Positions 4,679 to 64,000 of a stretch of 64,000 bases of DNA are shown here, piece by piece. Below the pieces are notes generated by a model. That model saw nothing but the letters and a program-made list of their open reading frames with translations, had not been told where the DNA came from and made no database searches. The DNA lies in assembly GCA_018402195.1 (NCBI GenBank), contig JAGYIW010000002.1, positions 14,082 to 78,081 on the forward strand, in the 5' to 3' direction. This stretch comes from Gammaproteobacteria bacterium (GTDB lineage Bacteria; Pseudomonadota; Gammaproteobacteria; M30B25). The position numbers and the translations under genes were made by a program. Every line of letters begins with the position of its first letter. The stretch's first letter is position 1.

Positions 4679-4731
4679 GTTTCTCTAAAAAACCCAAATT
4701 AGCTTGGATTTACAAGTATTTTCTGATTAAT

Positions 4732-32224: not shown

Positions 32225-32307
32225 TCCTATTATGATGTGTTTTGACCGCAGAGGGGGCGACATGATACTCTTGTCGCCCTCGATAAGTGCTTGCAGGCAG
32301 GTGTTTT

Positions 32308-33373: not shown

Positions 33374-33391
33374 CTGGTGGGTAGAAAATAA

Positions 33392-33462: not shown

Positions 33463-33463
33463 G

Positions 33464-33565
33464 GCTGAGGTTTGGGCAAGCCCATAAGGAAGCTCCTCAG
33501 GCTTGGTAGAGCACTTCTTGGTAAGGAAGAGGTCACCGTGTCTAATTCCGGGTTATGGGGCACCA
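33464..33565 (+). pseudogene. tRNA-Thr(GGT)-like sequence with an insertion of about 19 nt and broken stems
   Basis: ..TTGGTAGAGCAC..CTTGGTAAGGAAG..GGCACCA recognisable, but the acceptor and T stems do not pair. Confidence 0.45.
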
Positions 33566-33619
33566 AGATGGAGTAGGACAACTCGTAAACATAACATTTG
33601 GGTAGAGGGCATGAAGGCA

Positions 33620-34891
33620 CTGGCAAAGAAACTGAGCTGAAGCAAACCGGCATATCACCTGTGTAGGTACAATTGGTCACTGCAGACTATGGTGCTGAAT
33701 GACGCTGGGGAATTGAAGGGTGTAGCCAGACATAGCTGATTATAAAATGCGTCTGAAAGTTGAGCATGGTGGCAGCTCAAAACTATGCGGATATAGATAA
33801 AGCGCCAGAAGAGAAAGCGCGAGGGCATCGATCACTCTCAACCACAGACGCTGAGTATGCAGTGAAAGTGCGACATCCCCACGCAGACTGTCCCATTACG
33901 GATTATGTAAAGAACATGATCAGCGGTAGCAGACATGGGATTGAGCGATACTGGTTGTATCAGCGGCGGATGGTCCAATGCCACGTGACAAAGCAGAGCT
34001 ATATTGTTGGCAAGGCAGGTAGTGCCATCGATGGTGGTATTTCCTTTTGAACAAAGCAGACATGGTAGATGGCATTATGATACAGATTTGGCAGAAATGG
34101 AAGTACAGAGAGCGGTTGAGCGAGTACGACTTTCCGGCGTGACGAAGTACCAGAATCATCAAGGGATCAGCTTGAAAGGACTGGCGGCGGTAAAGCAGTG
34201 CATTACAAAGTGGCGCAAGTTGATCAAAGATTTGGTGTTGGCGATGGATGAGTACTTTGAGATACCAGAGCGTCCGTGTAGACAAGGACTTTTTGATGCC
34301 GATTGAAGACGTATTTTCTATTTCAGGTCAAAAAAGTGGCCAGCAGTACGCGACAGGGCGAATCGAGCGTGAGGTAGTGCAAAGTCAGGGGATCTGATAG
34401 AGATTGCAGGGTAAAATTCAGAGGCACCGCAAACAACAATTACGTACGGGTGCGTATATTGCTCTCGCAAGTTGTTGGACGAAGGTTTTGCGGAGACAAC
34501 GTGTATTGTTGGCGGGGCGCTTAGCTATGTAGCAGCTCAGAGCGAGGCCAAGCACGGAAGGGCAAAGCCAGGCAACGACTCCGGCCTGGCCAACACCAGC
34601 TCCAGCGGGAAGTGTACGTATTGACCAAAGATTTAGTTGCGGGCGTCATGCTTAAGCCCCCGATGATACGCCACAGCCCCCACTGGAGAATTTGAGTTGC
34701 ACTCCTTAACGTGGAGATCAAGCCACTGTGGACTACGGTAGAGATGAAGTAGGTTTTTTCCAGGAGACAATGCACAGCAGTAGCGAGAGCCGACCTGTTC
34801 CAATTGCGATGGAGCGCGGTAAGTTTCCTCATTCGCGAAGGTAATGCAAACAGTAGGTGCCGGGAATGTAACTGAGGTAATTACTGAGTAA
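33620..34891 (+). pseudogene. tuf: elongation factor Tu, heavily degraded copy
   Basis: Colinear nucleotide similarity to 50203-51394 from (c)TGGCAAAGAAA to ATTACTGAGTAA; dense indels and substitutions; about 80 bp longer; no ORF longer than about 120 aa. Confidence 0.85.
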
Positions 34892-34930
34892 GATGCTGTG
34901 GGTGAGCTTGTTTTTGCAGCCTCCGGGCAT

Positions 34931-35015
34931 AGGCTAGTAGCTCAATCTGGGTGGTGATGCAGCGGATCTCAAAACCGCAGGTTGGGGGTCTGAGTCCCCT
35001 CCTCCTAGCCTGCCA
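34931..35015 (+). pseudogene. tRNA-Trp-like sequence, internally disrupted (anticodon loop reads CTCAAAA)
   Basis: AGGCTAG/CTAGCCT acceptor and CCA tail pair perfectly, but the D and T regions are expanded (85 nt) and the CCA anticodon is not intact. Confidence 0.5.
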
Positions 35016-35032
35016 CAACTCACAGCCAGGAA

Positions 35033-35404
35033 ATGAGTACCAAGCAGATCACAGGTAAAAATGCTGCTGACACCCGGTGGCCCTTTGTGACTGCTTTGTT
35101 GACGTTAGCATTGGTAGCCAATATGTGGTTTACTGATGTTGATGGTATTACGTGCTGCGGTTGGTATTGTTGTTGTACTATTGGCGCGCTTGGTGGCACA
35201 AGCAAAACAATGTCAAGGCAAAGACACTGCAAATGCTCTCAACAAAGACACATGGAGATGCGTAAAGTGGTTTGGCCGACAAGACAAGAAGCTTCCAGAT
35301 GAAATACCATGTTGGTGGCACCACTGTTGTATTAATGTCAGGTGTGTTATGGGGCATTGACACATGACAGTTTGCATGGGCCAATTATGAAATTTGTAGG
35401 GTAA
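35033..35404 (+). pseudogene. secE: preprotein translocase subunit SecE, frameshifted
   Basis: ORF 35033.. contains ..EMRKVVWPTRQEA.. (SecE signature); the downstream TM segment is in another frame. Confidence 0.6.
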
Positions 35405-35407
35405 AAA

Positions 35408-36007
35408 GTGCAAACACGGTCGTGGTAAGGTCACCGAACTCTGCCTATAATATCCATTTTGTATCCTTTCAAAGGAAAACGTGTGGTAAAAGACTCCGGT
35501 ATAGTCCTACCTGCATTGCATAATCCTGGGTGACTAAATTTTGGTGAAATCTTGGTTCCTTCGGAGACTGTGATGGAGATCAAAAAGGTGGCACTAAGAA
35601 AAGCATTGAGCGTAAAATTTTTCCTGGCTATGTGTTGTTGCAGATGCACTGACTGACGAAACTCAGTATGGTTAGGGAAGCACACCTTAATGTTATGGGA
35701 TTTATTATGGCAATTTCAATGACGTCCAACTCCCTATTTCAAATAAAGAGGTTTGTATTTCAAACGAGGCTATATTGATACGTGTTGAAGAGGGTGTCAG
35801 CAAGCCTAGGGCCCCAAACATTATTCGAGGTTGGTGAGGTTGTGCGTGTTGTAGGGTGGCCCATTTGCCGACTTGGACGGAGCGTTTCATGAAGATATCA
35901 CTCGATGACAAGAGTCGGCTACGGGTGGCTGTAAAAATGATCATCCCTGGACGATCTACTCCGCAGGTTGAACTAGAATTTGGCGAAGTAGGAAAAATAG
36001 CTAGTAA
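35408..36007 (+). pseudogene. nusG: transcription termination/antitermination factor NusG, multiply frameshifted
   Basis: Fragments ..VPSETVMEIKK....KFF(P)GY.., ..GEVVRVV.GP.. and ..GRSTPQVELEFGEV.K. scattered over three frames in the canonical secE-nusG-rplK position. Confidence 0.65.
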
Positions 36008-36056
36008 AACAACAGTGGGAGCCGGAAGGCGTTTGAACCCATAGAGGAAAAGTCAA

Positions 36057-36505
36057 GTGGCAACTAAAAAATCGTCAACTACGTGAAGCTGCAGATTTCT
36101 GCAGGTTCTGCCAATCCTGCACCGCCGGTTGGCCCAGCACTGGGGCAGCACGGCTTGAACATTGTGGGGTTTTGTAAAGAATTTAACGAAAAAACCAAAG
36201 ATTTGGAGAAAGGCCTGCCAGTACCAACGGTCATTACCGTATATTCTGATAAAAGCTTTACTTTTATACTGAAAACACCACCAGCATCTGTGTTGCTACT
36301 AAAGGCTGCTGGAATCAAAAAAGGCAGTGGTGTTCCTCATAAAGAGAAAGTAGGTCAAGTGACGCGTGCTCAGTTGGAAGAAATAGCCGCCACTAAGATG
36401 CCTGATTTGTCAGCCAATGATATGGATGCAGCTGTCTTAATTATTGCAGGTACAGCGAGAAGTATGGGGATTGAAACTAATTTAGGTGATGGGGGTGCTG
36501 CATGA
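36057..36505 (+). CDS. rplK: 50S ribosomal protein L11 (uL11); frameshift in codon 5 at an A6 run, or start at GTG 36083
   Basis: ORF 36083-36505 = ..[23 protein letters not shown]... With one extra A at 36066-36071, GTG 36057 (GAGGA upstream) gives [17 protein letters not shown]. Confidence 0.85.
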
Positions 36506-45600: not shown

Positions 45601-46795
45601 ATGGCGCTGTTATTGCTATCAAAGATGGTGGCAAAGTGAAAGCGGGTGATATTGTCGCGGAATGGGATCCTCACACACATCCAATCATCACTGAGGTTGG
45701 CGGTGTCTTGCGTTTGCTTAATATCGAAGAGGGCATTAATGCTACCAAGCAAACTGATGATTTAACTGGTCTTTCAAATATTGTCATTACGACTGGCAAA
45801 CACCGTGACATGGATGAGGCACGACCTATGGTTAAGCTAACCGATGCCAAGGGGGAAGATTTAATGATCAGTGGTACCAAGGTACCTGCGCATTATTATT
45901 TGCCTGTGGGTGCAATCATTCAGTTAAAAGATGGTGACAAAGTAGGTACTGGTGAGGTTATTGCTCGTATACCACAAGAGACTTCAAAGTCTCGTGATAT
46001 TGCTGGTGGTTTGCCGCGGGTTGCTGATTTGTTTGAAGCCAGACGTCCTAAGGATGCGGCTATCTTGGCAGAATTATCTGGGGTAATTAGCTTTGGCTGA
46101 AACCAAAGAGAAGAAACGCCTTGTGATTACAGCACTGATGGTGAAACCTATGAGGTAGTAATTCGAAATGGCGTCGTTGGTGTGTTTGAAGGTGAGCAAA
46201 TCGAACGTGGTGAAATTGTGGCTGAAGGGTCCTAGCGATCCACATGATATTGTCCGTTTGTGGGGTCAATGCTTGGCCGAGTATATTGTCAATGAGATCC
46301 AAGAGGTTTACCGCTTGCAAGGTGTAAAAATCAATGACAAGCATATTGGAAGTCATATAAGACAGATGCTGCGAAAAGTGGTTATCAATCCTGTGACACC
46401 GCGCTAATCATTGGCGAGCAGGTGGGAGCAAGGACGTTTAATGAGACTAATGCAGCATTGAAGAAGGCAAAGTACCAGCACGCTGTGAACCACTTTGTTG
46501 GGGATTACAAAGCCTCATTGGCGACAGAGTCATTCTTGTCTGCAGCGTCGTTCCAAGAAACCACGCGTATTGACAGAAGCCTCTGTTGCCGGGGAAAAAG
46601 ACAATCTTCGTGGTCAAAAGAGAACATGATTGTCAGTCGCCATCCCTGCGGAACTGGTTTGGCGAAGCGTCGTTTAGATGCTAAGCGTAGGGCGGAGGTT
46701 TGGCTCGGGAAGCCATAGGTGTAACACCAGAATCTGCTGAGCAAGCACTTTCAAGCCCTGCAGGATAGCAGTGCTGATGCAAAAATAATTTTTAG
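42609..46795 (+). pseudogene. rpoC: DNA-directed RNA polymerase subunit beta': intact for 1163 codons, the last about 230 codons frame-scrambled
   Basis: TTG start with AGGGG SD; NADFDGD at about 43980. The ORF stops at 46100 (..ISFG*), yet the C-terminus (..ETKEKKRLVI.., ..[12 protein letters not shown].., ..[13 protein letters not shown].., ..ASLATESF.SAASFQETTR..) continues in shifting frames. Confidence 0.9.
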
Positions 46796-46926
46796 ATAGT
46801 TTGGCTTGCCCCTTGCACCGCGTTGCGGCAACGGGGCTCTCCCAAAGGTATAAATCCCCAGGTTAAACCATTTTGCTTGGTTTGTCCTAGGCAATATTGA
46901 ATTAAAGGCGATTCTTGACGAGAAAA

Positions 46927-46965
46927 GCCCACACAGAAACCCTGCACTTTGTGTGTGGGCTCTTA
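46927..46965 (+). terminator. candidate terminator after rpoC
   Basis: GCCCACACA-15 nt-TGTGTGGGC hairpin then TCTTAATATT; lies inside the low-fidelity block, so the T-tract may be corrupted. Confidence 0.35.
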
Positions 46966-47059
46966 ATATTGGTCTCAGTGCCTAATCCTGAGACTAGAGA
47001 AATTGAACAGACAGGTTATGTCGATTGGTGAAAAGACGCTTAAAATAGCGATTTTGCGC

Positions 47060-47089
47060 TTGACAAGAGATGGTGTGTGCTTTTAGAAT
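47060..47089 (+). promoter_or_regulatory. candidate sigma70 promoter of the str operon
   Basis: TTGACA-18 nt-TAGAAT about 60 nt upstream of the rpsL ATG. Confidence 0.3.
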
Positions 47090-47149
47090 CGCGCGTTCAA
47101 TTTAAATTTCCAAATGTTTTCACCGCGTCGGTTGAGCAACAATTTAGTT

Positions 47150-47527
47150 ATGGCTAGAATAAATCAATTATGCAGGAAGCCACGGAAACGAAGTTAAGAA
47201 GACATCGTCACCAGCGTTGAGTCGCTGTCCCACAACGTCGTGGTGTATGTGTGCGAGTCTACACAACAACCCCTCGTAAGCCCTAACTCTGCGTTACGTA
47301 AAGAAGCTAGGGTCTTGTGACAAACAGGTATGGAAGTCCCTGTTTACATTGGTGGTGAAGGCCACAACTTGCAAGAACATTCCATTGTGCTTGTGCGTGG
47401 TGGCAAAAAGATTTTGCCAGGCGTGCGTTACCATGTGGTCCGTGGCGCTCTAGATACTTCAGGGTTGGCAAGACGTCAGACGACGTTCCAAATATATGAA
47501 AGAAGCCAAAGAAAAATAAGAAGCTAA
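47150..47527 (+). pseudogene. rpsL: 30S ribosomal protein S12 (uS12), frameshifted
   Basis: ATGGCTAGAATAAATCAATTA..; ORF 47330-47527 carries ..[38 protein letters not shown].. while the N-terminal half is in other frames; span 378 bp. Confidence 0.8.
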
Positions 47528-47534
47528 GGTTTGC

Positions 47535-48080
47535 CATGAGAAGAAGGCGCGCTGGCACTATATTGCCCTGACCCTTTGCTTAAAAGTGAACTGGTTGCCA
47601 AGTTCTATCAATTGCATCATGATGGATGGAAAAATCTGTAGCAGAGAGCATTGTGTATGATGCAGATGAATTGTAAAGCGTCAAGGTCCCTAAGGGTATT
47701 GGAAAAATTGATGGTGAAGAAGACGCAGGTAAGAAGGCGGCAAAGGTGGTTCTATAGTCGCACCAACGACCGGGCGCGTCGTCGCTTTGGGGCTTTCGAA
47801 GACCATTGAGGCAGTCAAACCCTCAGTTGAAGTAAAGTCCGCCGCGTGGGTGGTTTCTAACTACCAAGTGCCGGTGGAAGTTCGTCCCAAGCGCCGTTTG
47901 GCTTTGCCATGCGTTAGCTCAAGACTGTTGCCGTGGCAAGATCCCCTGAGAAGTCCATGTCCAAACGTTTAGCTAACGAGTGCTAGATGTGCTTGGCAGG
48001 GCGAGGGAATACTAAAGAAGCGTAATGATACGCATCAAATGGCTAAGGCAAATCAGGCATTTGCCCATTACATGTGGGGC
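47535..48080 (+). pseudogene. rpsG: 30S ribosomal protein S7 (uS7), frameshifted
   Basis: MRRRRAG.., ..SVAESIVYDA.., ..VEVKS..GGSNYQVPVEVRPKRR.ALA.., ..[10 protein letters not shown] in different frames. Confidence 0.75.
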
Positions 48081-48090
48081 GAAGGCACAA

Positions 48091-50188
48091 GTGAGACAAC
48101 ATATCGAGTTGTACCGTAATATTGGTATTATGGCGCACATCGACGCCGGTAAAACAACAACGACAGAGCGCATTCTTTTATACGGAAATCCTACAAAATT
48201 GGTGAAGTGCATGATGGTGCTGCCACCATGGACTGGATGGAACAAGAGCAAGAGCGTGGTATTACGATACAATCAGCTGCAACAACTTGCTTCTGGTCTG
48301 GTATGGATAACCAATACAAGGCGCATCGCATTAACATTATTGATACGCCTGGCCACGTTGGACATTTCCATTGAAGTTGAGCGATCGCTCAAAGTCTTGG
48401 ATGAAGTGCATGTGCTGTATTTTGTGCTGTGGGTGGTGTCGAGCCTCAGTCTGAGACTGTATGGCGTCAGGCTACTAAATACAATGTGTACCTCGCATGG
48501 GCTGTCCAGATGGACCGTGCTGGTGCCATTTGCGTGTGGTCGAGCAAGCGTTTGCGATTGGGTTTTCTAATCCAGTGGCCATGCAGCTGCCAATTGGCGC
48601 TAAAGATTCTTTCGAGGGCGTGGTTGACTTGGTATTGATGAAGGCTATTCACTGGGATGAAGCCTCACAAGGCACTAAATTCGAGTTGAAAGATATCCTC
48701 AGAAAATATGGTCGACAGAATACAGCCGCTACCGCGAGAAATCTTGAAGCTGCGGCGGAATCTTCTGATGAATTAATGGGAAGCTTATTGAAAATGGTGA
48801 CCTTTCTGAAGATCAAATACATGTAAGCTATCATTGCCCGTACATTGGCTAACAGAAGTGGTTTCCTGTATTTTGTGGTTCTGCCTTTAAGAACAAAGGT
48901 GTGCAAGCCATGTTGGATGCAGTTATTGAGTACATGCCTTCACCTGCTGACATTGGATCCTGTGGTTGGTATTGCTGGATGACAAAGATGGATCAGAAAT
49001 CCAGTGCCCACCCTAAAGATGATGAGCCTTTTGCTGCTTTGGCATTCAAGATTTCAACTGACCCATTTTGTGGTACTTTGACTTACTTTCGTGTACTCTG
49101 GGCTATTACAATCCTGGCGATACAGTTTTATAACCCTTTGAAAGGCAAGCGTGAACGCATTGGTCGTTTTGCGCAAATGCACTCTAATTCTCGTGAAGAA
49201 ATCAAAGCAGTATGCGCTTCTTGGTGACATTGCAGCTGTTGTTGGTCTGAAGACAGCTGGGACAGGTGACACCTTTGTGTGACATAAACCGTATATTAAC
49301 GCTGATCCTGGAGTTCCCAGAGCCAGTAATTTCGGTTGCCGTTGAGCCTAAGACCCAAAGCTGACCAAGAGAAAATGGGTACAGCTTTGGAAATTGGCTC
49401 AGGAAGACCCCTTCTTTCAGGTACATACTGACGAAGAATCAGGTCAGACAATTATTTCTGGCATGGGTGAACTCCACCTTGGTAATCGTTGATCGAATGT
49501 TGCGTGAATTTAAAGTGCAAGCCAACGTTGGTAAGCCACAGGTCGCTTACCGTGAAACTATCCGAGGGTACTTGCGAGCAAGAGCACAAATTTGTGCGTC
49601 GACAGGTGGGCGCGGTCAATTTGGCCATGTCTATATTCGCATTGAGCCACAGAAGCCGGAGGGCTTTGAATTTGTCAACGAAATTGTTGGTGGTGTGATT
49701 CCAAGAGAATACATTCCGGCTGTTGAGAAGGGTGTGGTTGAACAAATGAAAAATGGTGTGGTTGCCGGATACCCTGTTGTAGATGTTAAAGTTACCTTGT
49801 ACGATGGTTCATTTCATGCTGTAGATTCTAGTGAGATGGCATTCAAGATTGCTGGCTCATTGGCCTTCAAAGAAGGCGCACCTAAAAAGCCAATGCCGTC
49901 CTACTTGAGCCTGTCATGGCTGTTGAAGTTGTGGACACCTGAAGAATACATGGGTGACATTGTTGGTGACCTGAACCGTCGTCGTGGTGTCATTTTAGGT
50001 ATGGATGAAATCTGTTGGTAAAATCATCAAGGCTGAAGTACCCTTTTTTTTTGGCTGAGATGTTTGGTTACTCTACAGATCTGCGTTCATCTTCGCAGGG
50101 ACGTGCATGTTATACAATGGAATTCTTAAAATACAACGAGCTACCTAAGAATATTGCTGATGGTATTGCTGAAACTAGAAAATCTTAA
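48091..50188 (+). pseudogene. fusA: elongation factor G, many frameshifts
   Basis: ..[22 protein letters not shown].., ..[23 protein letters not shown].., ..[11 protein letters not shown].. and ..[14 protein letters not shown].. readable across all three frames; about 10 ORF fragments; span 2098 bp, about the size of an intact fusA. Confidence 0.9.
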
Positions 50189-50202
50189 CTAAGGAGTTGA
50201 GC

Positions 50203-51394
50203 ATGGCAAAGAAATTTGAGCGAAATAAACCGCATATCAATGTAGGTACAATTGGTCACGTAGACCATGGTAAGACGACGCTAACAGCAGCGATAGCGAC
50301 AGTAATGTCGAAAGAGTATGGTGGTGAAGCTCAAAACTATGCGGATATAGATAAAGCGCCAGAAGAGAAAGCGCGAGGCATCACGATTTCAACGGCACAC
50401 GTTGAGGTATGAAAGTGGTGCGCGACACTACGCGCCACGTAGACTGTCCTGGTCACGCCCAGGATTATGTAAAGAACATGATCACGGGTGCAGCGCGAGA
50501 TGGATGGAGCGATACTGGTTGTATCAGCGGCGGATGGTCCAATGCCACAGACAAGAGAGCATATATTGTTGGCAAGGCAGGTAGGGTGCCATCGATGGTG
50601 GTATTTTGAACAAAGCAGACATGGTAGATGATGCAGAGCTATTAGAGCTGGTAGAAATGGAAGTAAAGAGAGCTGTTGAGCGAGTACTACTTTCCAGGTG
50701 ACGAAGTACCAATCATCAAGGGATCCAGCTTTGAAAGGATTGGCAGGTGAAAAGCAGTGACATAGGTGAGCAAGCGATCAAAGATTTGGTGTTGGCGATG
50801 GATGAGTACTTTGAGATACCAGAGCGTCCAGTAGACAAGGACTTTTTGATGCCGATTGAAGACGTATTTTCTATCGGTCGTGGTACAGTAGTGACAGGGC
50901 GAATCGAGCGGGGTAAAAGGTAGCTAGGGGATTGGATAGAAGATTGTAGGTATCAGAGGTACTCAAAAACAACATGTACGGGTGTAGAGATGTTTCGCAA
51001 GTTGCTGGACGAAGGTTTTGCGGGAGACAACGTAGGTGTATTGTTAAGGGGTACGAAGCGAGAAGAAGTAGAGCGAGGCCAAGTATTGGCAAAGCCAGGC
51101 ACGATCAAGCCACACACGAAGTTCAAAGCGGAAGTGTACGTATTGACCAAAGATGAAGGTGGGCGTCATAAGCCATTCTTCGGAGGATACAAGCCACAGT
51201 TCTACTTCAGGACGACAGACGTAACGGGAGAGATCAAGTTACCGACGGATGTAGAGATGGTGATGCCAGGAGACAATGTGACAGTAGAAGTAGAGTTAAT
51301 TGTTCCAATTGCGATGGAGCAAGGGGTAAGTTTCTCTATTCGCGAAGGTGGCCGCACAGTAGGTGCTGGTGTCGTAACTGAAATTACTGAGTAA
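50203..51394 (+). pseudogene. tuf: elongation factor Tu: 5' two-thirds frameshifted, last 134 codons intact
   Basis: [30 protein letters not shown].. stops at 50412. [17 protein letters not shown].. and later segments shift frame until about 50970; 50990-51394 is clean (..[20 protein letters not shown]..). Span 1192 bp. Confidence 0.9.
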
Positions 51395-51399
51395 GATTC

Positions 51400-51738
51400 A
51401 TGGCAACAAAGTTAATGAGAAATGAGCGTATTCGCATAGTCTTGAAAGGCTTTGACCATCGTCAGTTGGACGAGTCTACACGTGCCATTATTGAAACTGC
51501 TAAGCGTACAGGTGCAAGAATTCGTGGGCCTATCCCATTGCCTAACCGCACCCAGAAGTTTGTGGTTTTGATTTCACCGCATGTGAATAAAGACGCGCGT
51601 GAAGCTTATCAAATGATAACCCATAAACGGTTGATTGACTTGATTCAACCAACTGAGAAAACAGTGGATGCACTGATGAAGCTGGATTTATCTGCCGGCA
51701 TTGATGTGCAAATTAGTGTGGACAAGATTGAAGAATAA
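51400..51738 (+). CDS. rpsJ: 30S ribosomal protein S10 (uS10)
   Basis: Intact 112-aa ORF, ..[27 protein letters not shown].. Confidence 0.9.
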
Positions 51739-51772
51739 ATGCCTTTTTGGTGTGTGACTGAGAGAGAAGATC

Positions 51773-52429
51773 ATGACAAAAGCCTTAATTATTGGCACAA
51801 AAGTGGGAATGACGCGAGTCTTCGGTCAAGATGGTGAATCCATCCCTGTAACCGTACTGCAAGTTCAGCCTAACCAAGTGCTTAAGCGTGAGGAGTTATC
51901 AGAGCATATAGCCCTGATTACGACTAGCTATGGCGAAGAAAAACCACTGGCGCGAATGACAAAAGCTGTGGCAGGTAAGTACCGCCACGCCAATGCTAAA
52001 GGTGCACAAGGGATGCGATCCTTTAAAGTGCCCTCAACTTCTGAGTTAAAAGTTGAAGATGCCCTAGACGTTACTGCTTTTGCTGAAGGTGACTATGTTG
52101 ATGTGGCGGGTATTTCAAAAGGTAAAGGCTTCCAGGGTGTGATTAAGCGACACGGTTTTGGTATGCAGCCAGCAACCCACGGCACGTCATTGGCCCACAG
52201 AGCCCATGGTTCTACTGGGCAGTGTCAGGATCCAGGTAAGGTTTTCAAAGGTAAGAAAATGGCTGGCCAAATGGGTAACAAACGTGTTACAACACAAAAC
52301 TTACGTGTTGTACGCACGGATGCTGAAAAGCAACTGTTGTTGATCAGGGGTGCCATTCCAGGCGCTCCTGGGACTTTTGTAGAAGTCTCTGCAGCAATAA
52401 AAAAGAAAAAAGAAGGTGGTGAACCGTGA
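51773..52429 (+). CDS. rplC: 50S ribosomal protein L3 (uL3)
   Basis: Intact 218-aa ORF, ..GTKVGMTRVF..; S10-operon order. Confidence 0.9.
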   Translation: MTKALIIGTKVGMTRVFGQDGESIPVTVLQVQPNQVLKREELSEHIALITTSYGEEKPLARMTKAVAGKYRHANAKGAQGMRSFKVPSTSELKVEDALDVTAFAEGDYVDVAGISKGKGFQGVIKRHGFGMQPATHGTSLAHRAHGSTGQCQDPGKVFKGKKMAGQMGNKRVTTQNLRVVRTDAEKQLLLIRGAIPGAPGTFVEVSAAIKKKKEGGEP

Positions 52430-53049
52430 GTGTGAAATTAGCAGTACGAAAGAGTGACGGCAAAGCAGGCACACCAGTGAACGTTTCTGAGCAGGTATTT
52501 GGTGCCAAATATAACGAGGCATTGGTGCATGAAGTGGTTACTGGTCTTATGGCCAACACTCGCTCAGATACCTCAATGCAAAAAAACCGCTCTGCAGTAA
52601 GTGGTGGTGGTATTAAGCCATGGCGTCAAAAAGGCTTAGGTCGGGCCCGTGCTGGTAGTATTCGTAGTCCGCTATGGCGTAGTGGTGGTACCACGTTTGG
52701 TGGTCAACAAGCTTCTCACCAGAAGAAAATCAACAAAAAAGCTTATCGTGCTGCGATTCGTGCTATGCTATCTGAGTTGGTACGTATTGAGCGTTTATTT
52801 GTGATTGATGATTTGTCACTTTCAGCGCCTAAGACCAAAGATCTTAAGGTTAAACTAGATAAAATGAATCTAAGAAATGCGTTAATTTTGATGGAAGAGT
52901 TTGACGAAACCTTATTCCTGGCTTCACGCAATATTCCTTATGTTGACGTGATGCTAGTAGAAGATATGTATCCTGTCAGCCTGTTGGCATATGAAAATTT
53001 GATATTGACATCTGGCGCGGTGAAGCAAATTGAGGAGTGGTTGTCATGA
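52426..53049 (+). CDS. rplD: 50S ribosomal protein L4 (uL4)
   Basis: Intact 207-aa ORF, GTG start overlapping the rplC stop; ..KPWRQKGLGRARAGSIRSPLWR.GG.. Confidence 0.9.
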   Translation: MSVKLAVRKSDGKAGTPVNVSEQVFGAKYNEALVHEVVTGLMANTRSDTSMQKNRSAVSGGGIKPWRQKGLGRARAGSIRSPLWRSGGTTFGGQQASHQKKINKKAYRAAIRAMLSELVRIERLFVIDDLSLSAPKTKDLKVKLDKMNLRNALILMEEFDETLFLASRNIPYVDVMLVEDMYPVSLLAYENLILTSGAVKQIEEWLS

Positions 53050-53345
53050 ATGAGAGAGATATAAGTGTGTTGATCGAGCCTCGCCTTTCTGAGAAGGCTA
53101 GTAATCTTTCAGAAAATTTCGGTCAATACACATTTAAAGTCCTGAAAACTTCAGGAAAGTTGGCCATCAAACAAGCTGTTGAAGCGATGTTTGAAGTAAA
53201 TGTGGCATCTGTACGTACCGTTAGCTGTGTGGGTAAAACCAAGCGTTCTGGTAAACGTATGGGGCGCACAAAAGCTTGGAAAAAAGCATATGTCAAGCTA
53301 CAAAAAGGCCAAAAAATTGATATGGCGTCTCAAGAAGTCGCGTAG
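53046..53345 (+). CDS. rplW: 50S ribosomal protein L23 (uL23)
   Basis: ATG 53046 overlaps the rplD stop (ATGA), GAGGAG upstream; ..[11 protein letters not shown].. (ORF track start 53037). Confidence 0.9.
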
Positions 53346-53359
53346 GGGAAGAGTTTAAA

Positions 53360-54232
53360 ATGGCAGCAAGAATAAAACGATATAGGCCAATTACACCAGG
53401 CCAACGTCACAAAGAGACAGTGAATCATAAGCCTGTGGTTCACAGTGGAGGTCCTGTTAAAGCCTTGACCAAAGGCAAAAAGCAGTCTGCAGGCCGTAAT
53501 ACACACGGTTGCATCACAGTACGTGGTCGTGGTGGCGGTACCAAAAAGAAGATTCGTACGGTCGATTTTAAGCGTCATGATAAATTTGGTATACCTGCTA
53601 AAGTTGAGCGTTTAGAATACGATCCTAATCGTAGTGCCTATCTTGCTTTGTTATTATACGCAGACGGTGAGCGTCGTTACATCATTGCTGCTAAGGGTAT
53701 GGAGCCAGGAATGCAAGTGCATGCTGGCCCTGATGCACCTATTCAACCAGGTAACTGTTTGCCTTTGTCAAACATTCCTCAAGGTACCGTGATTCATGGT
53801 ATTGAGTTGAAGCTTGGTAAAGGGGCTCAGTTGATAAGATCCGCAGGAACTTCAGCCCAATTAGTAGCCAAGGGTGATTCCGATGATGCAGGTGATTATG
53901 TGATTGTCAGGCTGGGTTCAAAAGAATACCGAAAAGTGTTGGCCAAATGCTGTGCAAGCATTGGTGAAGTATCAAATTCAGATCATGGCTTGCGTAAGCT
54001 GGGTAAGGCTGGTGCCAATCGCTGGAGGGGACGTCGTCCTAAAGTCCGTGGTGTGGCCATGAATCCTGTCGATCACCCACATGGTGGTGGTGAAGGTAAG
54101 TCTTCTGGTGGGCGTCATCCTGTGAGTCCAACAGGTGTACCTGCCAAAGGATTTAAAACACGGGCGAAAAGTCATCGAACTGACAAGATGATCGTCCGCT
54201 CGAGAAGAAAGAATCAGAAGAGGAGTGACTAG
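53360..54232 (+). CDS. rplB: 50S ribosomal protein L2 (uL2)
   Basis: Intact 290-aa ORF, ..[12 protein letters not shown].., ..[17 protein letters not shown].. Confidence 0.95.
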
Positions 54233-54513
54233 TGGCACGTTCAGCTAAAAAATGCTATTTCATTGACGCTTCACTGCACGAAAAGGTGCTTAGAGCGCAA
54301 AAAGAAAAGTCTAGAAAACCCATCAAAACGCACTCCAGGCGTTCAACCGTGATTCCGGCCATGGTCGGTTTGGTGATGGCTGTACATAATGGCCGTGCAC
54401 ATGTGCCTGTACTGGTTGTAGAAAGCATGGTTGGTGAGAAATTGGGTGTGTTTGCTCCAACTAGGACGTTTCATGGGCATGCTGGTAACAAGAAAGCCGA
54501 CAAGAAGAAATAA
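54232..54513 (+). CDS. rpsS: 30S ribosomal protein S19 (uS19)
   Basis: Intact 93-aa GTG ORF; ..[24 protein letters not shown].. Confidence 0.9.
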
Positions 54514-54525
54514 GTGAGGTGACAA

Positions 54526-54858
54526 GTGGAAGTTAAAGCAGTATTGAAGAACGCTGGCATGTCTGCTCAAAAAGCAGGGTTGGTAGCGGATCAAATAAGA
54601 GGGCTTCCTGTGGGGAAGGCGCTAGAATTGCTACATTTTAGCCGTAAAGAGGCCGCTCAAATGATGAAGAAGGTTCTTGATTCAGCCATTGCCAATGCAG
54701 AGCACAATCATGGTGCTGATGTAGATGAGCTGAAGGTTTCTACTGTGTATGTGGACAAAGGCATGATGTTAAAGCGCATGCGTGCTAGAGCCCGAGGTCG
54801 TGGCAACCGCATATTAAAGCGATTTTGTCATATTACAGTAAAAGTATCTGATAGTTAA
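54526..54858 (+). CDS. rplV: 50S ribosomal protein L22 (uL22)
   Basis: Intact 110-aa GTG ORF; ..[22 protein letters not shown].. Confidence 0.9.
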
Positions 54859-54876
54859 CGAATAAGAGAAGTAGTT

Positions 54877-55539
54877 ATGGGGCAAAAAGTAAATCCTAAT
54901 GGAATGCGTCTTGGCATTGTCAGAGACTGGGATGCGAATTGGTTTGAACAAAAGCATTATGCTAAATATTTGGCAGAAGACATTCGCGTTCGTCAGTATA
55001 TTGAGAGCAATTTCACCAATGCAGCGGTAGCACGTATCCTGATTGAGCGTCAAGCAACTAAACCAATCGTCACCGTTTTTTGTGGCCGTCCTGGTGTTTT
55101 GCTCGGGCGCAAAGGCACCGGCCGTGATGAGATTGTTGCTAAGCTTAGCAGCATGCTGGGTGTTAAGGTGCGAGTTCAGATTGAGGAAGTGAAGCGTATT
55201 GATTTAGATGCGACTTTGTTGGCAGCAAATATTGCTCAACAACTGGAGCGGCGTGTCATGTTTCGTCGGGCCATGAAGCGTGCGGTCCAAACAGCTATGC
55301 GAGCTGGTGCTTTGGGTGTTAAGGTTGCAGTAGCTGGTCGTTTGGGCGGTGCTGAGATTGCGCGTACAGAATGGTATCGTGAAGGGCGTGTTCCTTTGCA
55401 TACTTTCCGTGCTGATATTGATTATGCCACTGCCAGAGCATCAACTACTTATGGTGTGATTGGTGTCAAGGTTTGGATCTTCAAAGGTGAAGTTCTGGGT
55501 GATAAAGACTCAGGCAGCATGAAAGATAGAGAACAGTAA
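54877..55539 (+). CDS. rpsC: 30S ribosomal protein S3 (uS3)
   Basis: Intact 220-aa [17 protein letters not shown].. Confidence 0.95.
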
Positions 55540-56867: not shown

Positions 56868-57224
56868 ATGGCGATGCAAAAAGTAAAAGTGGGCGACGAA
56901 GTCATTGTCCGTACCGGTGCCGATAAAGGCAAGCGTGGTACTGTGTCTAAAGTTTTCGTCAAAATGAAAAATAGAAAATCTCGATTGATGGTTCTGGTTG
57001 AAGGTTTAAAGCTTATCCGTAAGCATGTGAAGCCTAACCCACAAGCAGGGCAGCAAGGCGGTATTGTTGAGAAAGAGGCGCCTATGGATGCTTCCAACGT
57101 AGCTTTGTACAATCCAGGTGACAAAAAGGCTAGCCGTGTTGGCATCAAGATGCTGAAAGACGGTAAGAAAGTTCGTTATTATAAGTCTAACGGCGAAGTC
57201 GTTGATGGTGGAGAAGATAAGTAA
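56868..57224 (+). CDS. rplX: 50S ribosomal protein L24 (uL24)
   Basis: Intact 118-aa ORF, ..[22 protein letters not shown].. Confidence 0.9.
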
Positions 57225-57769
57225 TGGCAACGTTAGCAGTACAGTACAAAAAAAAGATCGTCCCTGAGTTACAGAAGGCTTTTGGTTTTTCCAGCGTGAT
57301 GCGCGTGCCAAAACTTGAAAAAATTGTGCTCAATATGGGGGTTGGTGAAGCCATTAATGATAAAAAACATATTATTAATGCGGTTCATGATTTGGGTTTG
57401 TTGGCAGGCCAGAAGCCAGTGGTGACTTTGGCTCGCAAATCTGTGGCGGGCTTTAAAGTTCGCGAAGGTTGGCCTCTTGGATGTAAGTAACTGCGCGGTG
57501 AACGCATGTATGAGTTTCTTGACGTTTGGTAGTTATTGCTATTCCTCGTATCCGTGACTGGAGGTTTTAGCCCCAAAGAGTTTGACGGTGATTTCAACTA
57601 CAATTTCCCATTACATTAAAAGAACAAATCGTTTCCTAGGTTGGATTATGATAAAAGTTGATTCAAGTTCGTGGGTTAAACATCACATTTGTAACTACGA
57701 AGACCCATGAAGAGGGCGTGGCTTTGTTAAAAGCTTTGGGTTTTCCTTTGAAGAGAAAAGAAGGCATAG
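57224..57769 (+). pseudogene. rplE: 50S ribosomal protein L5 (uL5): first 88 codons intact, remainder frameshifted
   Basis: ORF stops at 57490 (..REGWPLGCK*); ..LRGERMYEFLD.., ..IPRIRD.., ..FDG.. and ..GLNITFVTT..EEGVALLKALGFP.. continue in other frames. Confidence 0.85.
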
Positions 57770-57772
57770 GGT

Positions 57773-58078
57773 ATGGCAAAGGAAATGTATGGTAGCGCGC
57801 GAGCGTAAGCGCGTAGAAAGCAGCCAAAAGTGGTGCTGAGTGCAGAGACAAGCTAAAGGCGTTAATAAAAGACGTTAGCGCTGATTTTGACACCAAGCTC
57901 AAAGCTATCTTAGATTTAAGTCGTCGCAAACGTGATGAAAGTGAAGTGTCGTCTGCGGCATCGTTGTATGTGCTGCGGACGTCCTCATGCAGTTTATCGT
58001 AAATTTAGACTTTGCCGTATGTGTTTACGTCAGGCGGTGATGAGGTTGGTTGCCTGGGGTTGCAAGTCTAGCTAGTAA
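57773..58078 (+). pseudogene. rpsN: 30S ribosomal protein S14 (uS14), frameshifted
   Basis: ATGGCAAAGGAAA..; fragments ..REKRVE.., ..[21 protein letters not shown]..; span 306 bp, the size of an intact rpsN. Confidence 0.7.
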
Positions 58079-58107
58079 GAATAATAAAGAATTGAGGGTA
58101 ACAGACT

Positions 58108-58516
58108 ATGAGTATGCAAGATCAATTTCTGATGCATTGACACGGATTCTGCTTGCCGCCACGCTGTCGGGCACAAATCCGTGAGCATGCATACATCAAA
58201 ATTGCCGCAATATATTGAAAGTAATGCAAGACCAGAAGGCTACATCCGAGACTTTGCTGTACAACTGGTAGAGAGGACTCAGCTACGAAAGATATTGTGG
58301 TGCGTTTGTTTTGATGGTGCACCAGTTATTGAGCACTTCAAAAACATTTGAGTACCTGGTCGTAAGCAGCTACGTCAGGGTGTCTGATTTGCCCAAAGAA
58401 AAAGAAGGTTTGGGTATTGTAATCATGACAACATCGCAAGGTGTAATGACAACTCACCCAGGCTGAAAAGCTTGGACTGGGTGGTGAATTATTGGTGGCT
58501 ATTTACCAACAGTTAA
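58108..58516 (+). pseudogene. rpsH: 30S ribosomal protein S8 (uS8), frameshifted
   Basis: MSMQD.ISDALTRI.. then shifts; ..GLGIVIMTTSQGVMT.. recognisable. Confidence 0.7.
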
Positions 58517-58560
58517 GGTTTAACTATGACACTTAGTACAAAAAGACAATTTGATCTAGC

Positions 58561-59122
58561 ATTTCTAGGGTTGCCAAGCAACCTATCATGATACCTCCAG
58601 GGTAACTGTGGCTGTTGACGGGCAAAATGTAAATTGTCAAAGGACCTAAAGGCAGGGTGACCAGTAGAATTGCATGCCTCAGTCGAAGTCATGCTGCGCA
58701 GTTAGTGGAGAAAAGGTGGTGAGGGACAGTTTGCCCAGTGGTCTAATGTTGCTTACCTACCTCCTCAGTGGCGGATAGTAACATGCGTACCGGTACTGCT
58801 AGAGCACTTGCAACAACTTGGTGACAGGTGTATATAAGGTTTTGAGAAGAGAATTAGTTATGATTGGTGTTGGTTATCATTGCATAAATACCAAGGTAAT
58901 AAACTGGTGTTTACGCCCAGGTAAATCATCCAGATGATTTGTTTTACCAGAAGGTATTTCTGCTGAGTTACCAAGCCAAGCTGAAGTTATTCTCAAGGGT
59001 ATCGACAAACAAGCTGTGGGGCAGGCGCTAAAATCAGAATTTTAGACCACCATTCTGCAAAAATTAAAGAGCACGCTATACCCGATGAACATATAAGATG
59101 GAAAGAAGAGGCTAAGAAGTAA
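58561..59122 (+). pseudogene. rplF: 50S ribosomal protein L6 (uL6), frameshifted, start codon altered
   Basis: ..SRVAKQPI.IPPG.TVAVDGQNV.IVKGPKG.. in shifting frames; ends ..EAKK*. Confidence 0.65.
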
Positions 59123-59477
59123 TGTCAGATAAATTAAAACGACAGAAGAGAGCGCTAAAAACACATTACCAATATTGTAAGGCTCAAGAAGATTAATTGT
59201 CAGTTACAAAAGCAGCCAGCATATTGAGGCGCAGTTGATCGATCCTCAAGGGAAGGTATTGGTATATTTTCCACAAAGAGGTGAAACTTTCAAAAACTTG
59301 GCTTGGCTCTTGGAAGCAATATTCAAGCAGCCTCTAGAAGAAACTGGGGACGTGGTCGCCGATGCAGGATGCAAGCTTGGTTTTTGAAAAGTGGCTTTTG
59401 ATCGTTCTGGATTTCGATTCCACGGACGCATCAAAGCGTTGGCTGATGCTGCGTGAAGGCGGTTTAATTTTGCTTAA
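59122..59477 (+). pseudogene. rplR: 50S ribosomal protein L18 (uL18), frameshifted
   Basis: ATGTCAGATAAATTAAAACGACAGAAGAGAGCG.. (MSDKLKRQKRA..), ..FDRSGFRFHGRIKALADAA.EGGL.F in other frames. Confidence 0.65.
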
Positions 59478-59486
59478 AGGGTGAGC

Positions 59487-59999
59487 ATGGCTGTTCCAGC
59501 AGAAAAACAGCTGGATACCGATGGTATTCTAGAAAGTTAGTGACAGTGCGCCATTGCTGCTCACGTGGCCGAGGCGGACGTGTGTTTGGCTCCGCCTGGT
59601 AGTGGTGGGTGATGGTGAAGGCGCGTCGGCTTTGGTTTTTGCCAAAGCTTCAGAAGTGCCTGTTGCCATTAAGAAGGCCATGCAAAGTGCTAGGCGTAAC
59701 ATGGTGTTGATTCCTTTTTAAATGGAACAACGCTGTATCACCATTAACAGATTTTGCGCTACAGTGCAATGATTCAATGACACTGCTAAGCAGGTACCGG
59801 TGGCATGATTGCCAGAGCAACGCAATGCGTGCCTGTATTCGAAGTCTTAGGTGTTGAAAACGTGTTGTAAAATCTCTTGGGATTTCGACTACCCAATTAA
59901 TGTCGTTAGAGCAACCATTAAAGGTCTGAAGTCCATGACTGCGCCTGACGTTGCATAAACAGGAAAAAATCTCTAAGAAGCAATAGAAGAAGTTATACG
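59487..59999 (+). pseudogene. rpsE: 30S ribosomal protein S5 (uS5), frameshifted
   Basis: Fragments ..RGGRVF.F.A.VVVGDGEG.VGFG..KA.EVPVAIKKAMQSARRNMV.. in shifting frames. Confidence 0.65.
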
Positions 60000-60185
60000 A
60001 TGGCAAAGACGGTTAAAGTGACGTTGAGTAAAGTAAGTTTGGTCATAAGAAACCTGGACACAGAGAAACGTGTAGAAGGTCTTGGTTTGTCGTATACATC
60101 AGAGCAGTTGATGTACTGGATACATGAAAATCAAAGGGCATGATAAATAAAGTTATCTACATACTTAAAGTTGAAGAAGAGCTAA
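60000..60185 (+). pseudogene. rpmD: 50S ribosomal protein L30 (uL30), frameshifted
   Basis: MAKTVKVTL.. then shifts; ..LLKVEE.. at the end. Confidence 0.6.
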
Positions 60186-60188
60186 ACC

Positions 60189-60622
60189 ATGAGTATGCGA
60201 CTAAATACCTCAAGCCTGCAGAAGGCGCAAAGTAAAAGAAAGCAAATTATTGGACGTAGGATCAGTAGTGGTTCTGGTAAGACATGTAAGCGCGGTCATA
60301 AAGGTCAGCGTTCTAGACGTGTTGCACCACATGCATTTATCGGCTTTGGTGGTCAAACGCCATTGCAGAGACGATCTACCTAAATCTGGCTTTAATTCGC
60401 GTAAGCAAAGAACGCTGTGTCATGCTTTGTCTGAATTTGGCTAAGGTAGAAGGCGATATTGCTGACATGGATGATGTTGTGGCGGGTTGGTTCAAACCTT
60501 ACCAAACAATGAAGATAATGTTTAATCAAGGTGAAATTTCACATTAACTGATAGTTAAAGGCACCGATTCGTTTGACCAAAGTGCCAAGAAAGCTGTTGA
60601 AAAAGTAGGTGATAGAAAGTAA
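60189..60622 (+). pseudogene. rplO: 50S ribosomal protein L15 (uL15), frameshifted
   Basis: (MS)MRLNT.....[28 protein letters not shown].. then stop at 60383; the rest is in other frames. Confidence 0.7.
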
Positions 60623-60627
60623 GCAGG

Positions 60628-61897
60628 ATGCGAGGTTGAAGAGAAGCATAAAACTGCATGATTCAACAAGGGTCATCCCAGGTGCTTTCGCAGAGCTAAA
60701 AGAGCCGTTTGCTCTTTTGCTGGCATCTTGATATTTCCTTTAGGGTGCATCCCGTGCCAAGATGATGATGTGCACTGGCAAAACTTTTTGGTGATGGTAG
60801 TCGCTCCCTTGCAGGTCACCAATATGTTTTCAAACGGAACCTTTAAACCTTGTGCAGTTTTTGCTGGGCATAATACCTTATATTTCCCAGCTCATGTTAT
60901 ACAACTGATGTCTGTCACAGTGCACCAGAGATTGGAGCTGCATGAAGAGGAAGGTGATGCAGGAAGGCAATAAAATTACTCAATAATACTCTCAGTACAG
61001 CACATAAGTATTAACAGTTTCAGGCATGGTTTATGAAGTATCTGATAGCAGCACAGGTATTTGTCATTAATCCTGAGTATGGTTTCTTCTGTCCACCACT
61101 CAACCTTCGTTTGTTCTCTTTTGGTAGTTGGGCAGACAAATGACTGAAAGAGGCATTATTAACAGGGTATCTTTAATTATATATAGTATTGACCCTCAAC
61201 TTTCCTGAGGCTATTTCAAGTTTTCTCAGTGCAGGCAGCTTGGTCCTATTTCCTAATTGTCTTGGAATTGCTTTGGTTTTGCTGCAGTAACATATTTTGT
61301 AGTTTATATGGAGCGGGCTGGCAATCATTCCTGTGCACTACGCTAAGCGTCAGCAGGAGCCATAAGCTTTATGCAGCACAAAATAGCCTTTTACTTAAAA
61401 ATCAATATGTCTGGTGTGATTCCTCCCATGCTTTGCTTCAAGTATTATTTTGTTTCCTCAGACTATTTCTAGCTGGTTTGGCCAAAGTGGGGTTGGAATT
61501 GGTTCGTACCTTAAACATACAGTTAGGCCATGGTCAGCCTTTGTATATGATTTTATTTGTATCTGCGTTGGCTTTTCTACCTTTTTCACAGCGTTGGTGT
61601 TTAATTTCAGACTGCTCAAAATCTAAAGAAGTCTGGGACTTTATACCCAGTATACGTCTAGCGAGCAGACGGCAGCATATCGTAAGGTATTATTTGTTGA
61701 CTCTGGTTGGCGCATGTTACTTATCTGCAGTGGCTTTGCTACCAGAGTTTCTAATCATAGGCTGGCACGTGCCATTCTATTTTTTTTAATTGGTACCTCT
61801 TTGTTAATTGCTGGTGGTTGTGTTGATGGATTTGATAGCGCAAATACAAGCGTTACTGCTGTCTGATCAATACGGATCACTGATGAAAGGCTTCTAA
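60628..61897 (+). pseudogene. secY: preprotein translocase subunit SecY, many frameshifts
   Basis: ..FAELK..L.LLAGILIF..G..IPVP.., ..NMFSNG.., ..GQPLYMILFVSALAF.. and ..LLPEFLI... in all three frames; the longest fragment is ORF 61229-61789. Confidence 0.75.
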
Positions 61898-61953
61898 ATT
61901 TGGAAGCCAGGTGCCAATTTGTTAGGTTAAATTAAGCGTAAGGAGTAAGGCAA

Positions 61954-62068
61954 ATGAAAGTAGGTGCGTCAGTGAAGCGCCGGTTGCAAAGATTGTCCAG
62001 ATTTATCAAACGCAAAGGCCGTGTTATAGTTATTTGGCGATACCTACTTCCTGCAGCGCCAAGGTTGA
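61954..62068 (+). pseudogene. rpmJ: 50S ribosomal protein L36 (bL36), frameshifted
   Basis: ATGAAAGTAGGTGCGTCAGTGAAGCGC.. (MKV.ASVKR), AAGGAG SD; ends ..RQG*; span 115 bp, not a multiple of 3. Confidence 0.6.
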
Positions 62069-62178
62069 TACGTTGATTAAAGCGGCAATTTGGCAAGTAA
62101 AAGATTGATTTTTGCCCAGAGCGTTAAAATGTCGCGCTCTGGTTTAAATCAAGATCACAAGAGTTAGGAGAATATTGA

Positions 62179-62536
62179 GTGCCACGTATTTTGGCTGTTA
62201 ACGTTCCGGGTGAGAAGCACATTGTTATCGGGCTTACTCATATTTATAGCATTAGCCTTCCTAGAGCCAAGGCCTTTGTAAGCAATTAGGCATCAATCCA
62301 CGAAACTAGGGTGATGACTTGACGAAATCAGATTGAATATAGCATTCGCGAGCTGTTAAAGTCTTACACGCTGAAGGTGATTTAAAGCGTGAAGTGATGA
62401 TGTACATCAAGCGATTGATGGAAATTTAAATACACACCGCGGACGTAGACACCGTTCTGGTTTGCCACTACGGGGCAAAGGGCAAACAATGCGAACTCGC
62501 AAAGGTAAGAAAAGCAAGCTCAATAACGAGCGATAG
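62179..62536 (+). pseudogene. rpsM: 30S ribosomal protein S13 (uS13), frameshifted
   Basis: GTGCCACGTATTTTGGCTGTTAACGTTCCG.. (MPRI.AVNVP.EKHIVIGLTHIY.I..); ..EGDLKREVMMYIKRLM.. and ..RGKGQTMRTRKG.. in other frames; span 358 bp. Confidence 0.7.
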
Positions 62537-62693
62537 ACAAAAAGTGAGAGAATGACATGGCAGATAGTACTGAAGAAACAATTGAAAACACAGAGCAAGT
62601 TGAAGCACCTGTGTCGGAAGCTACTCAAGCTGGGGTAAAAAATCTAATGAAGTCATAGCTAAAGTAAACAAAGCTGAAGCTACGCTAGCGTCT

Positions 62694-63128
62694 TTGCAGG
62701 AGTCGAGTGAAGGTGCGACGGGAGCTTCAGCAGTGACTGCGGCTAAGAAATCTTCTAAAAACAAGAAAAAGATTGTGATAGAAGGCGCTGCGCATGTAAC
62801 AGCTTCATTCAATAATACAATTGTTTCTATTACCAACTTGCGTGGTGATGTGTTGGCATGGTCTTCTGCAGGTGCCTGTGGTTTCAAAGGCTCTAAGAAA
62901 GGTACGCCTTATGCTGGCCAAATGGCAGCAACTGCGGCAGCCAAAGCTGTGATTGACCCTAAAACCGGTTGTGGCATGGAACGTATTAAGATTTATGTGA
63001 GTGGTTTTGGTGCTGCACGAGATTCTGTTATCCGTGCTTTATCATCGGTATTGAAAGTGTCAGCATTGATTGATACAACATCGATTCCATTCAATGGTTG
63101 TCGTAACCCCAAAGAACGTCGAGTTTAG
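62694..63128 (+). CDS. rpsK: 30S ribosomal protein S11 (uS11); possible N-terminal extension starting at ATG 62557, interrupted at an A6 run
   Basis: ORF ..KKIVIEGAAHVTASFNNTIVSITNLRGDVLAWSSAG..GFKGSKKGTPYA..PFNGCRNPKERRV; see the finding on 62557-62693. Confidence 0.85.
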   Translation: MQESSEGATGASAVTAAKKSSKNKKKIVIEGAAHVTASFNNTIVSITNLRGDVLAWSSAGACGFKGSKKGTPYAGQMAATAAAKAVIDPKTGCGMERIKIYVSGFGAARDSVIRALSSVLKVSALIDTTSIPFNGCRNPKERRV

Positions 63129-63140
63129 GAGAGAAAATAG

Positions 63141-63806
63141 GTGGGAAGGTATAGAGGTCCAACGTGTAAGCTGGCTAGAAGAGAAGGTACAGACCTTCTA
63201 CTGAAAAGCCACCTTCGTGATATTAAAACCAAATGTAAGTTAGATACGTTGCCAGGCGTTGCAAAAATGCGCGGCCGCTTGTCTGATTACGGCGTTCAAT
63301 TACGTATGAAGCAAATGATTCGCCGTTACTACGGTGTGTCTGAGAAGCAGTTCCGGCGATATTATGCTATGGCAGATAGACGCAAGGGTGCTACAGGTAC
63401 CGAACTGTTGCGTATTTTGGAATCTCGTTTGGATAACGTTGTATACCGTCTTGGTTTTGCAGCAACGCGTGCTGAGGCACGTCAGTTGGTCAGCCATAAA
63501 GCCATTGTGGTGACACCTGCACCTAGCGTTGATACTGACGCTGGTATCTCACGTAAGCATGTTCCTACAGTCGTTAGTGTTGCTTCGTATCGTGTGCACC
63601 CTGGTGACGTGATCTCTGTGCGCGAGAAAGCCAAATCTCAAATGCGTATTCAAGCAGCGTTAGAACTCAGCCAGCGTGTTGAAGCACCTGGTTGGTTGGC
63701 GTTGGATTCTAAAGCCATGACAGGCACTTTTAATGCGTATCCTGGTGAAGATGACTTCCCGGCCGAATTTAAAGTGAATCTCGTGGTTGAATTGTACTCT
63801 AAGTAG
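63141..63806 (+). CDS. rpsD: 30S ribosomal protein S4 (uS4)
   Basis: Intact 221-aa [25 protein letters not shown].., ..[25 protein letters not shown].. Confidence 0.9.
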
Positions 63807-63816
63807 AGGTAAGTAT

Positions 63817-64000
63817 ATGTCTAGTCAAGAAGAGTCAAGTACTGTAAATGTGCAGGATATTTTTCAAAATATGCTTGTACCTACAAAAATTAATGTCACT
63901 GAAATATCTGAACACTGCTTTAAGATTGTGCTAGAGCCGTTTGAGCGTGGCTACGGCCATACTATCGGCGCAGCCTTGAGGCGCATCTTGCTTGCTTCTA
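63817..64000 (+). CDS. rpoA: DNA-directed RNA polymerase subunit alpha, 5' part (continues beyond window)
   Basis: [61 protein letters not shown]; expected position after rpsD. Confidence 0.85.

Follow-up and report, generated by a model that had tools for sequence, protein, structure and literature searches.

The stretch of DNA analysed here, called the window throughout, comprises 64,000 nt of contig JAGYIW010000002.1 (assembly GCA_018402195.1) from a gammaproteobacterium, and our subject is its spc operon, in which eleven genes from the 3' half of rplE to rpsM, together with the 5' end of rpsK, are damaged between 57,488 and ~62,642 on the plus strand (block C).

Damaged genes of the spc operon

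In the map of open reading frames (ORFs), ordinary ribosomal-protein genes are tightly packed up to codon 88 of rplE and resume at rpsK and rpsD. Between 57,490 and 62,694 long ORFs are absent, and nothing exceeds the size of chance ORFs. A tblastn comparison with the spc operon of a Legionellales-like metagenome-assembled genome (MAG; L010) recovered all the expected genes in canonical order, as short matches that switch frame. Gene positions were obtained with a frameshift-aware dynamic programme, in which the window DNA was compared with proteins from an intact relative; this relative is an ENA metagenome contig (L036) whose L14 is at least 90% identical and whose DNA identity is ~75-78%. 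The alignment placed the genes as follows.

57,224-57,487 (+): first 88 codons of rplE, the error-free end of the clean block, aligning without lesions to L5 of the relative; the ORF runs from 57,224 to 57,490
57,224-57,766 (+): rplE
57,773-58,076 (+): rpsN
58,108-58,506 (+): rpsH
58,526-59,119 (+): rplF
59,122-59,472 (+): rplR
59,487-60,013 (+): rpsE
60,000-60,184 (+): rpmD
60,195-60,658 (+): rplO
60,658-61,927 (+): secY, with ~411 codons recognisable, at least 25 frameshifts and 2 stops
61,954-62,065 (+): rpmJ
62,179-62,523 (+): rpsM
62,557-63,128 (+): rpsK, bearing an N-terminal extension that seems specific to the lineage; the gene contains the last lesion, and clean sequence begins at 62,652 or earlier

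From L5 to S13 and into the N terminus of S11, the alignment required at least 85 frameshifts (47 of the '+1' and 38 of the '+2' type) and crossed 14 in-frame stops. Identical alignment of seven flanking controls (S3, L16, L29, S17, L14, L24, and S4) gave neither a frameshift nor a stop. The lesions are tiny and evenly spread over the block. The first of them lies at 57,488-57,490, where the window reads GCK*LRGER and the relative GCKVTLRGER; the TAA at this position results from the loss of 3 nt. The frameshift-corrected translation of secY matches SecY proteins at up to 67% identity, and the 38-aa L36 carries compound errors at its 3' end. The original prediction, made from the letters and their ORFs, had held that rplE is intact for 88 codons and then broken, that rpsN to rpsM are recognisable only as frame-hopping fragments, and that gene spans stay near canonical sizes. 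All three statements were borne out: rplE is open from 57,224 to 57,487 and closed by the TAA, the gene list and order match and the frames are broken as counted above, and the spans lie within ~2% of those of the relative.

Error signature and read-derived contigs

At the DNA level, identity to the relative in aligned columns was ~0.76 inside block C and ~0.78 outside it, while gap events numbered 13-29 per 250 bp inside the block and 0-9 in most bins outside it. Noise simulated on the window's own clean genes reproduced the statistics of block C at ~3-6% insertions and deletions (indels) plus a few per cent substitutions. A census of homopolymer run lengths in the noisy and clean blocks showed runs of 6 or more to be slightly depleted, which is not decisive alone. 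Block C is described by an excess of indels, which are tiny, balanced, and found in homopolymer context, and by substitutions that are not raised, as would be expected of a long-read patch. On these sequence comparisons, the lesion pattern reads as a signature of error and not of decay. Block C is almost certainly an uncorrected consensus of long-read quality, with ~3-4% error events, mainly indels of 1-2 nt.

The window contains two further damaged blocks, one of which could be compared directly with a contig assembled from reads.

46,098-50,967 (+): block B, comprising the 3' end of rpoC, rpsL, rpsG, fusA, and the 5' two-thirds of tuf, with frame-hopping like that of block C
50,406-50,967 (+): verified patch of 562 bp within block B, in the tuf copy upstream of rpsJ, to which the 23 bases that differ from the read-derived contig L038 are confined
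32,300-36,071 (+): block A, which has more noise than the other two and approaches raw reads in quality; it spans a tRNA cluster, the second copy of tuf, and the secE/nusG region

A Pfam scan of block B, for which the frames were translated with stops masked as X, found the domains RNA_pol_Rpb1_5 (RpoC C-terminal), S12, S7, EFG_III/IV/C, and GTP_EFTU split over three frames. The tuf gene of this block contains 10 frameshifts and 1 stop. The Logan contig L038 (1,774 bp), assembled from run SRR14300309, corresponds to positions 50,203-51,980 of the window; it codes for an unbroken EF-Tu of 395 aa and then for S10. Its differences from the window amount to 9 insertion events, 6 deletion events, and 3 substitutions, among them T5 to T4, T3 to T1, and AA to AAAA, so that indel events outnumber substitutions 5:1 in the verified patch. 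No difference was found in 50,203-50,405 or in 50,968-51,980. Since L038 is intact, the frameshifts, at least in 50,406-50,967, are absent from the reads' own consensus. By the same aligner, the patch has 17.8 frameshifts per kb, and block C has 16.5 per kb.

The clean blocks matched independently assembled Logan contigs of the same run at 100% identity: L035 covers 52,490-55,044 (2,555 bp), L032 covers 1,220 bp, and L038 outside the patch covers ~1,200 bp. The proteins S4, L2, and S10 of the clean blocks also occur in Logan assemblies of SRR14300309. The 88-aa L5 and other ORFs of the noisy blocks (P0001 and P0129-P0131) are recorded only from the NCBI contig (105,452 bp) and never from Logan; exact look-ups of the L24 start variants and of P0001 returned no contig.

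The right edge of block C can be placed by the same means. By alignment, the last lesion falls at ~62,633-62,642. The ORF that opens with the ATG at 62,557 is offset by one base from the rpsK frame within GGGGTAAAAAA (62,632-62,642; a net loss of 1 nt), and an A6 run occupies 62,637-62,642. The prediction of a last lesion in this homopolymer was therefore right as to position, but the sequence is not an rpsK leader, as had been supposed: the lesion sits inside the coding sequence of an extended rpsK, whose counterpart in the relative encodes an S11 of 210 aa (L036 7,999-8,631). L032 corresponds to 62,652-63,871 of the window, and in it the S11 frame is open from the first base, upstream of 62,694. 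This contig starts ~10 bp past the last lesion of block C, which would fit a tie between the block edges and the ends of short-read contigs.

The N-terminal extension of S11, ~60-80 residues long, is acidic and Ala/Thr rich, and appears lineage specific. After the 1-nt correction, S11 would have ~191 aa here, compared to 210 aa in L036 and ~130 aa in typical bacteria and in L010. Downstream, S4 (rpsD, 63,141-63,806) has 221 aa, ~16 residues more than that of L036 (205 aa). The closest GTDB representatives of S4 are only ~60% identical, and the organism therefore belongs to a deep, poorly sampled Coxiellaceae/Legionellales-like lineage. M30B25, a candidate source MAG (GC 44.3%, 1.29 Mb), is placed in o__UBA7916 of the Gammaproteobacteria.

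Block A extends the comparison to a second tuf gene. Alignment of block A to a relative (L033) opened 76 gaps in 1,280 bp, and its tuf carries 23 frameshifts and 10 stops. Compared to the clean parts of the block B copy, this tuf has ~10-14% mismatches and 9-11% indel events. The lesions in the two tuf copies lie mainly at different positions and thus represent independent random errors; lesions shared through systematic error or common reads were considered and rejected on the same ground. Noise density differs between the blocks, and error-free segments exist within them, namely, 50,203-50,405 (the first 203 nt of the block B tuf) and tRNA-Gly at 33,392-33,462 in block A. This internal patchiness suggests that polishing worked locally where reads could be placed uniquely. 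Three damaged blocks alternating with flawless ones had been proposed. Blocks A and B are indeed like block C in kind, although the noise is not uniform within the blocks.

Two observations concern the surroundings of the tuf genes. In block A, a sub-threshold tRNA-like match of 21 bits at 33,280-33,369, with a long variable arm and the anticodon loop CUGCAAA, lies directly upstream of the perfect tRNA-Gly(TCC) (33,392-33,462) and the second tuf copy. The match probably represents the tRNA-Tyr of the tRNA cluster that usually precedes tufB, corrupted by sequencing noise. In the relative L033 (positions 1-3,640; ENA ERZ650160; ~79% DNA identity), tuf-rpsJ is preceded by a radical-SAM gene and trmB, not by rpsL-rpsG-fusA; thus, synteny upstream of the S10 operon is not conserved in the group.

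Two more ORF-poor stretches of the window, at 2,947-6,443 and 16,750-19,183, contain transposase fragments of the IS3 (rve/DDE) and IS1595-like insertion sequence (IS) types. Both hold a repeat encoding ...VTLPFLKLVKSRVSQLMC, at 4,254-4,436 (-) and 18,950-19,183 (-). These stretches may be real IS remnants or, likewise, unpolished repeat sequence.

Origin of the damaged blocks

Chen et al. (Commun Biol 2021; PMC8382752; project PRJNA721826), whose paper cites run SRR14300309, assembled MAGs from Lake Shunet water using Nanopore and Illumina reads. Their pipeline combined metaFlye, Pilon, MEGAHIT, quickmerge (-ml 7500), metaWRAP, five rounds of Pilon, and Flye/Unicycler. Contigs from long reads acted as bridges in Unicycler, and MAGs were retained when short-read coverage was at least 80% (PMC8382752). 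The authors state that long-read assemblies hold many in-del errors, against which Pilon was used (PMC8382752). This is an assembly from noisy long reads with short-read polishing and merging, to which the NCBI contig is presumably linked through its BioProject. The run itself is presumably an Illumina run, given the exactness of its contigs.

We consider it very likely that block C is an artefact of assembly or polishing, that is, a stretch of uncorrected Nanopore quality in an otherwise Illumina-exact contig of a hybrid MAG. It presumably shares its cause with the verified patch of block B, and the real rplE-rpsM and secY genes of the organism are almost certainly intact. Under this explanation, the contig would be a mosaic, exact in stretches that came from or were corrected by Illumina reads. 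A low-depth Nanopore consensus would persist wherever short reads were lacking, were too few, mapped to several places, or had been drawn off to a redundant contig. The errors of such a draft (~3-4%, mostly 1-2 nt indels, often in homopolymers and short repeats) would yield genes that keep their normal length and order but hop between frames. Patches of different consensus quality had been favoured in the original prediction, and this view holds up, since a hybrid pipeline splices long- and short-read sequence and the block B lesions are absent from the read-derived contig.

We infer the pipeline step that left each patch uncorrected as follows. The rate of mismatches between tuf copy A and the true copy B reaches its minimum over approximately the interval of the 562-bp patch, which suggests that the two tuf copies are truly identical there; short reads would therefore multi-map, and Pilon would be left without weighted evidence. 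Block C is single copy in the window and thus needs a cause other than multi-mapping of the tuf type. The block may have come from a Unicycler or quickmerge bridge built on a low-depth Flye contig, Illumina depth may have been sparse, or short reads may have been diverted to a redundant MEGAHIT contig too short for the 7.5-kb merge threshold.

Several points weigh against an artefact. Direct, read-derived proof covers block B only. A search with the corrected SecY gave no intact copy from the same organism, the best of the matches listed being 67% identical. The escape of a single-copy 5-kb region from polishing is hard to account for, as reads evidently exist for at least part of block B. Finally, the platform of SRR14300309 is deduced from its contigs and the identity of the source MAG is presumed.

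Residual indels missed by Pilon-type polishing resemble what we observe: they are dominated by indels, enriched in homopolymers, and break ORFs while gene order and length are kept, with abrupt edges to polished sequence. Unlike in the usual cases, the patches here are unusually large (4-5 kb), dense, and located in single-copy conserved operons. The location could also be accommodated by a mixed-strain or chimeric consensus, in which long reads of related, co-occurring strains or species collapsed over conserved genes. Strongly conserved genes (tuf, fusA, rpoC, ribosomal-protein genes, and secY), over which metagenome graphs tangle, underlie all three blocks, and other metagenomes contain relatives at 78-90% DNA identity. 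However, the S10 operon and rpoB are equally conserved yet clean, and the verified errors are homopolymer indels rather than single-nucleotide polymorphisms between strains. We regard a mixed consensus as highly improbable; it would in any case remain a technical artefact and would only refine the explanation by uncorrected long-read sequence.

Real pseudogenisation would mean that the spc operon of block C has truly decayed, for instance in the reduced genome of a host-associated organism, or as a duplicated or transferred copy; gene conversion with an intact copy might have patched it. The Coxiellaceae/Legionellales-like lineage, the small size of the candidate MAG (~1.3 Mb; an unconfirmed assignment), the IS and transposase fragments elsewhere in the window, which suggest some genome flux, and the sharp block edges, as in recombination tracts, all speak in its favour. 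Adjacent genes with frameshifts and stops are likewise found in the pseudogene tracts of reduced genomes such as Mycobacterium leprae, Rickettsia, and young endosymbionts. Unlike in those tracts, substitutions are not elevated here, deletions are not favoured, gene lengths are kept, and essential genes are hit. Bacterial pseudogenes are dominated by substitutions and show a deletion bias, with deletions of varying size. Block C has no excess of substitutions over its flanks; its identity to the relative equals theirs, its '+1' and '+2' frameshifts stand at 47:38, and its insertions are about as frequent as its deletions and uniformly tiny, none of which indicates relaxed selection. The affected ribosomal-protein and secY genes are universally essential. 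Pseudogenisation would have inactivated eleven essential single-copy genes, secY among them. A decayed operon of indispensable genes would call for a second copy, and none of block C was found within the 64-kb window. The similar-looking lesions of block B, moreover, are absent from the reads' own contig, again unlike those of pseudogene tracts, so that for block B pseudogenisation is already largely refuted. We give it very little credence for block C.

Gene conversion between intact and decayed operon copies, offered in the original prediction as the lesser possibility, finds no support in the same evidence: the window holds no second copy, indels prevail 5:1 in the block B patch, and substitutions are unchanged. 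Scarcely any weight, too, attaches to the idea that block C is real sequence spliced into the chromosome backbone by the assembler, whether a decaying duplicate spc operon of a sub-population or a host-integrated copy from this Coxiellaceae-like bacterium.

Recoding might rescue the genes, through programmed frameshifting on the ribosome, slippage during transcription, or a non-standard genetic code, and some lesions do lie in homopolymers, such as the A6 at 62,637-62,642. Its probability is negligible: the 5 kb hold at least 85 frameshifts, which run in both directions and whose positions are not conserved, instead of one or a few defined slippery sites shared with relatives; L036 and L010 have plain open genes; and flanking genes of the same operon need no recoding. 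Deliberate corruption of the window was excluded, because the frame-shifted ORFs exist in a public protein set derived from NCBI.

Consequences for gene and genome inferences

The observation is real and the feature is technical. Products of the noisy blocks form singleton clusters in a large public protein collection, among them the following.

57,224-57,490 (+): 88-aa L5
61,229-61,789: 186-aa ORF of the SecY region
48,025-48,570: 181-aa fragment
50,990-51,394: 134-aa C terminus of EF-Tu

The artefact has thus already propagated into protein databases. About one-fifth of the 64-kb window is at Nanopore-draft quality, including tuf, fusA, the 3' end of rpoC, the eleven spc-operon genes, and secY within them. 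The marker genes of this record are unfit for use before re-polishing. No new biology follows from the damaged spc operon, which serves as a warning about data quality: gene calls, marker-based estimates of completeness, phylogenomic placement, and inferences of pseudogenes or genome reduction drawn from this MAG would be distorted.

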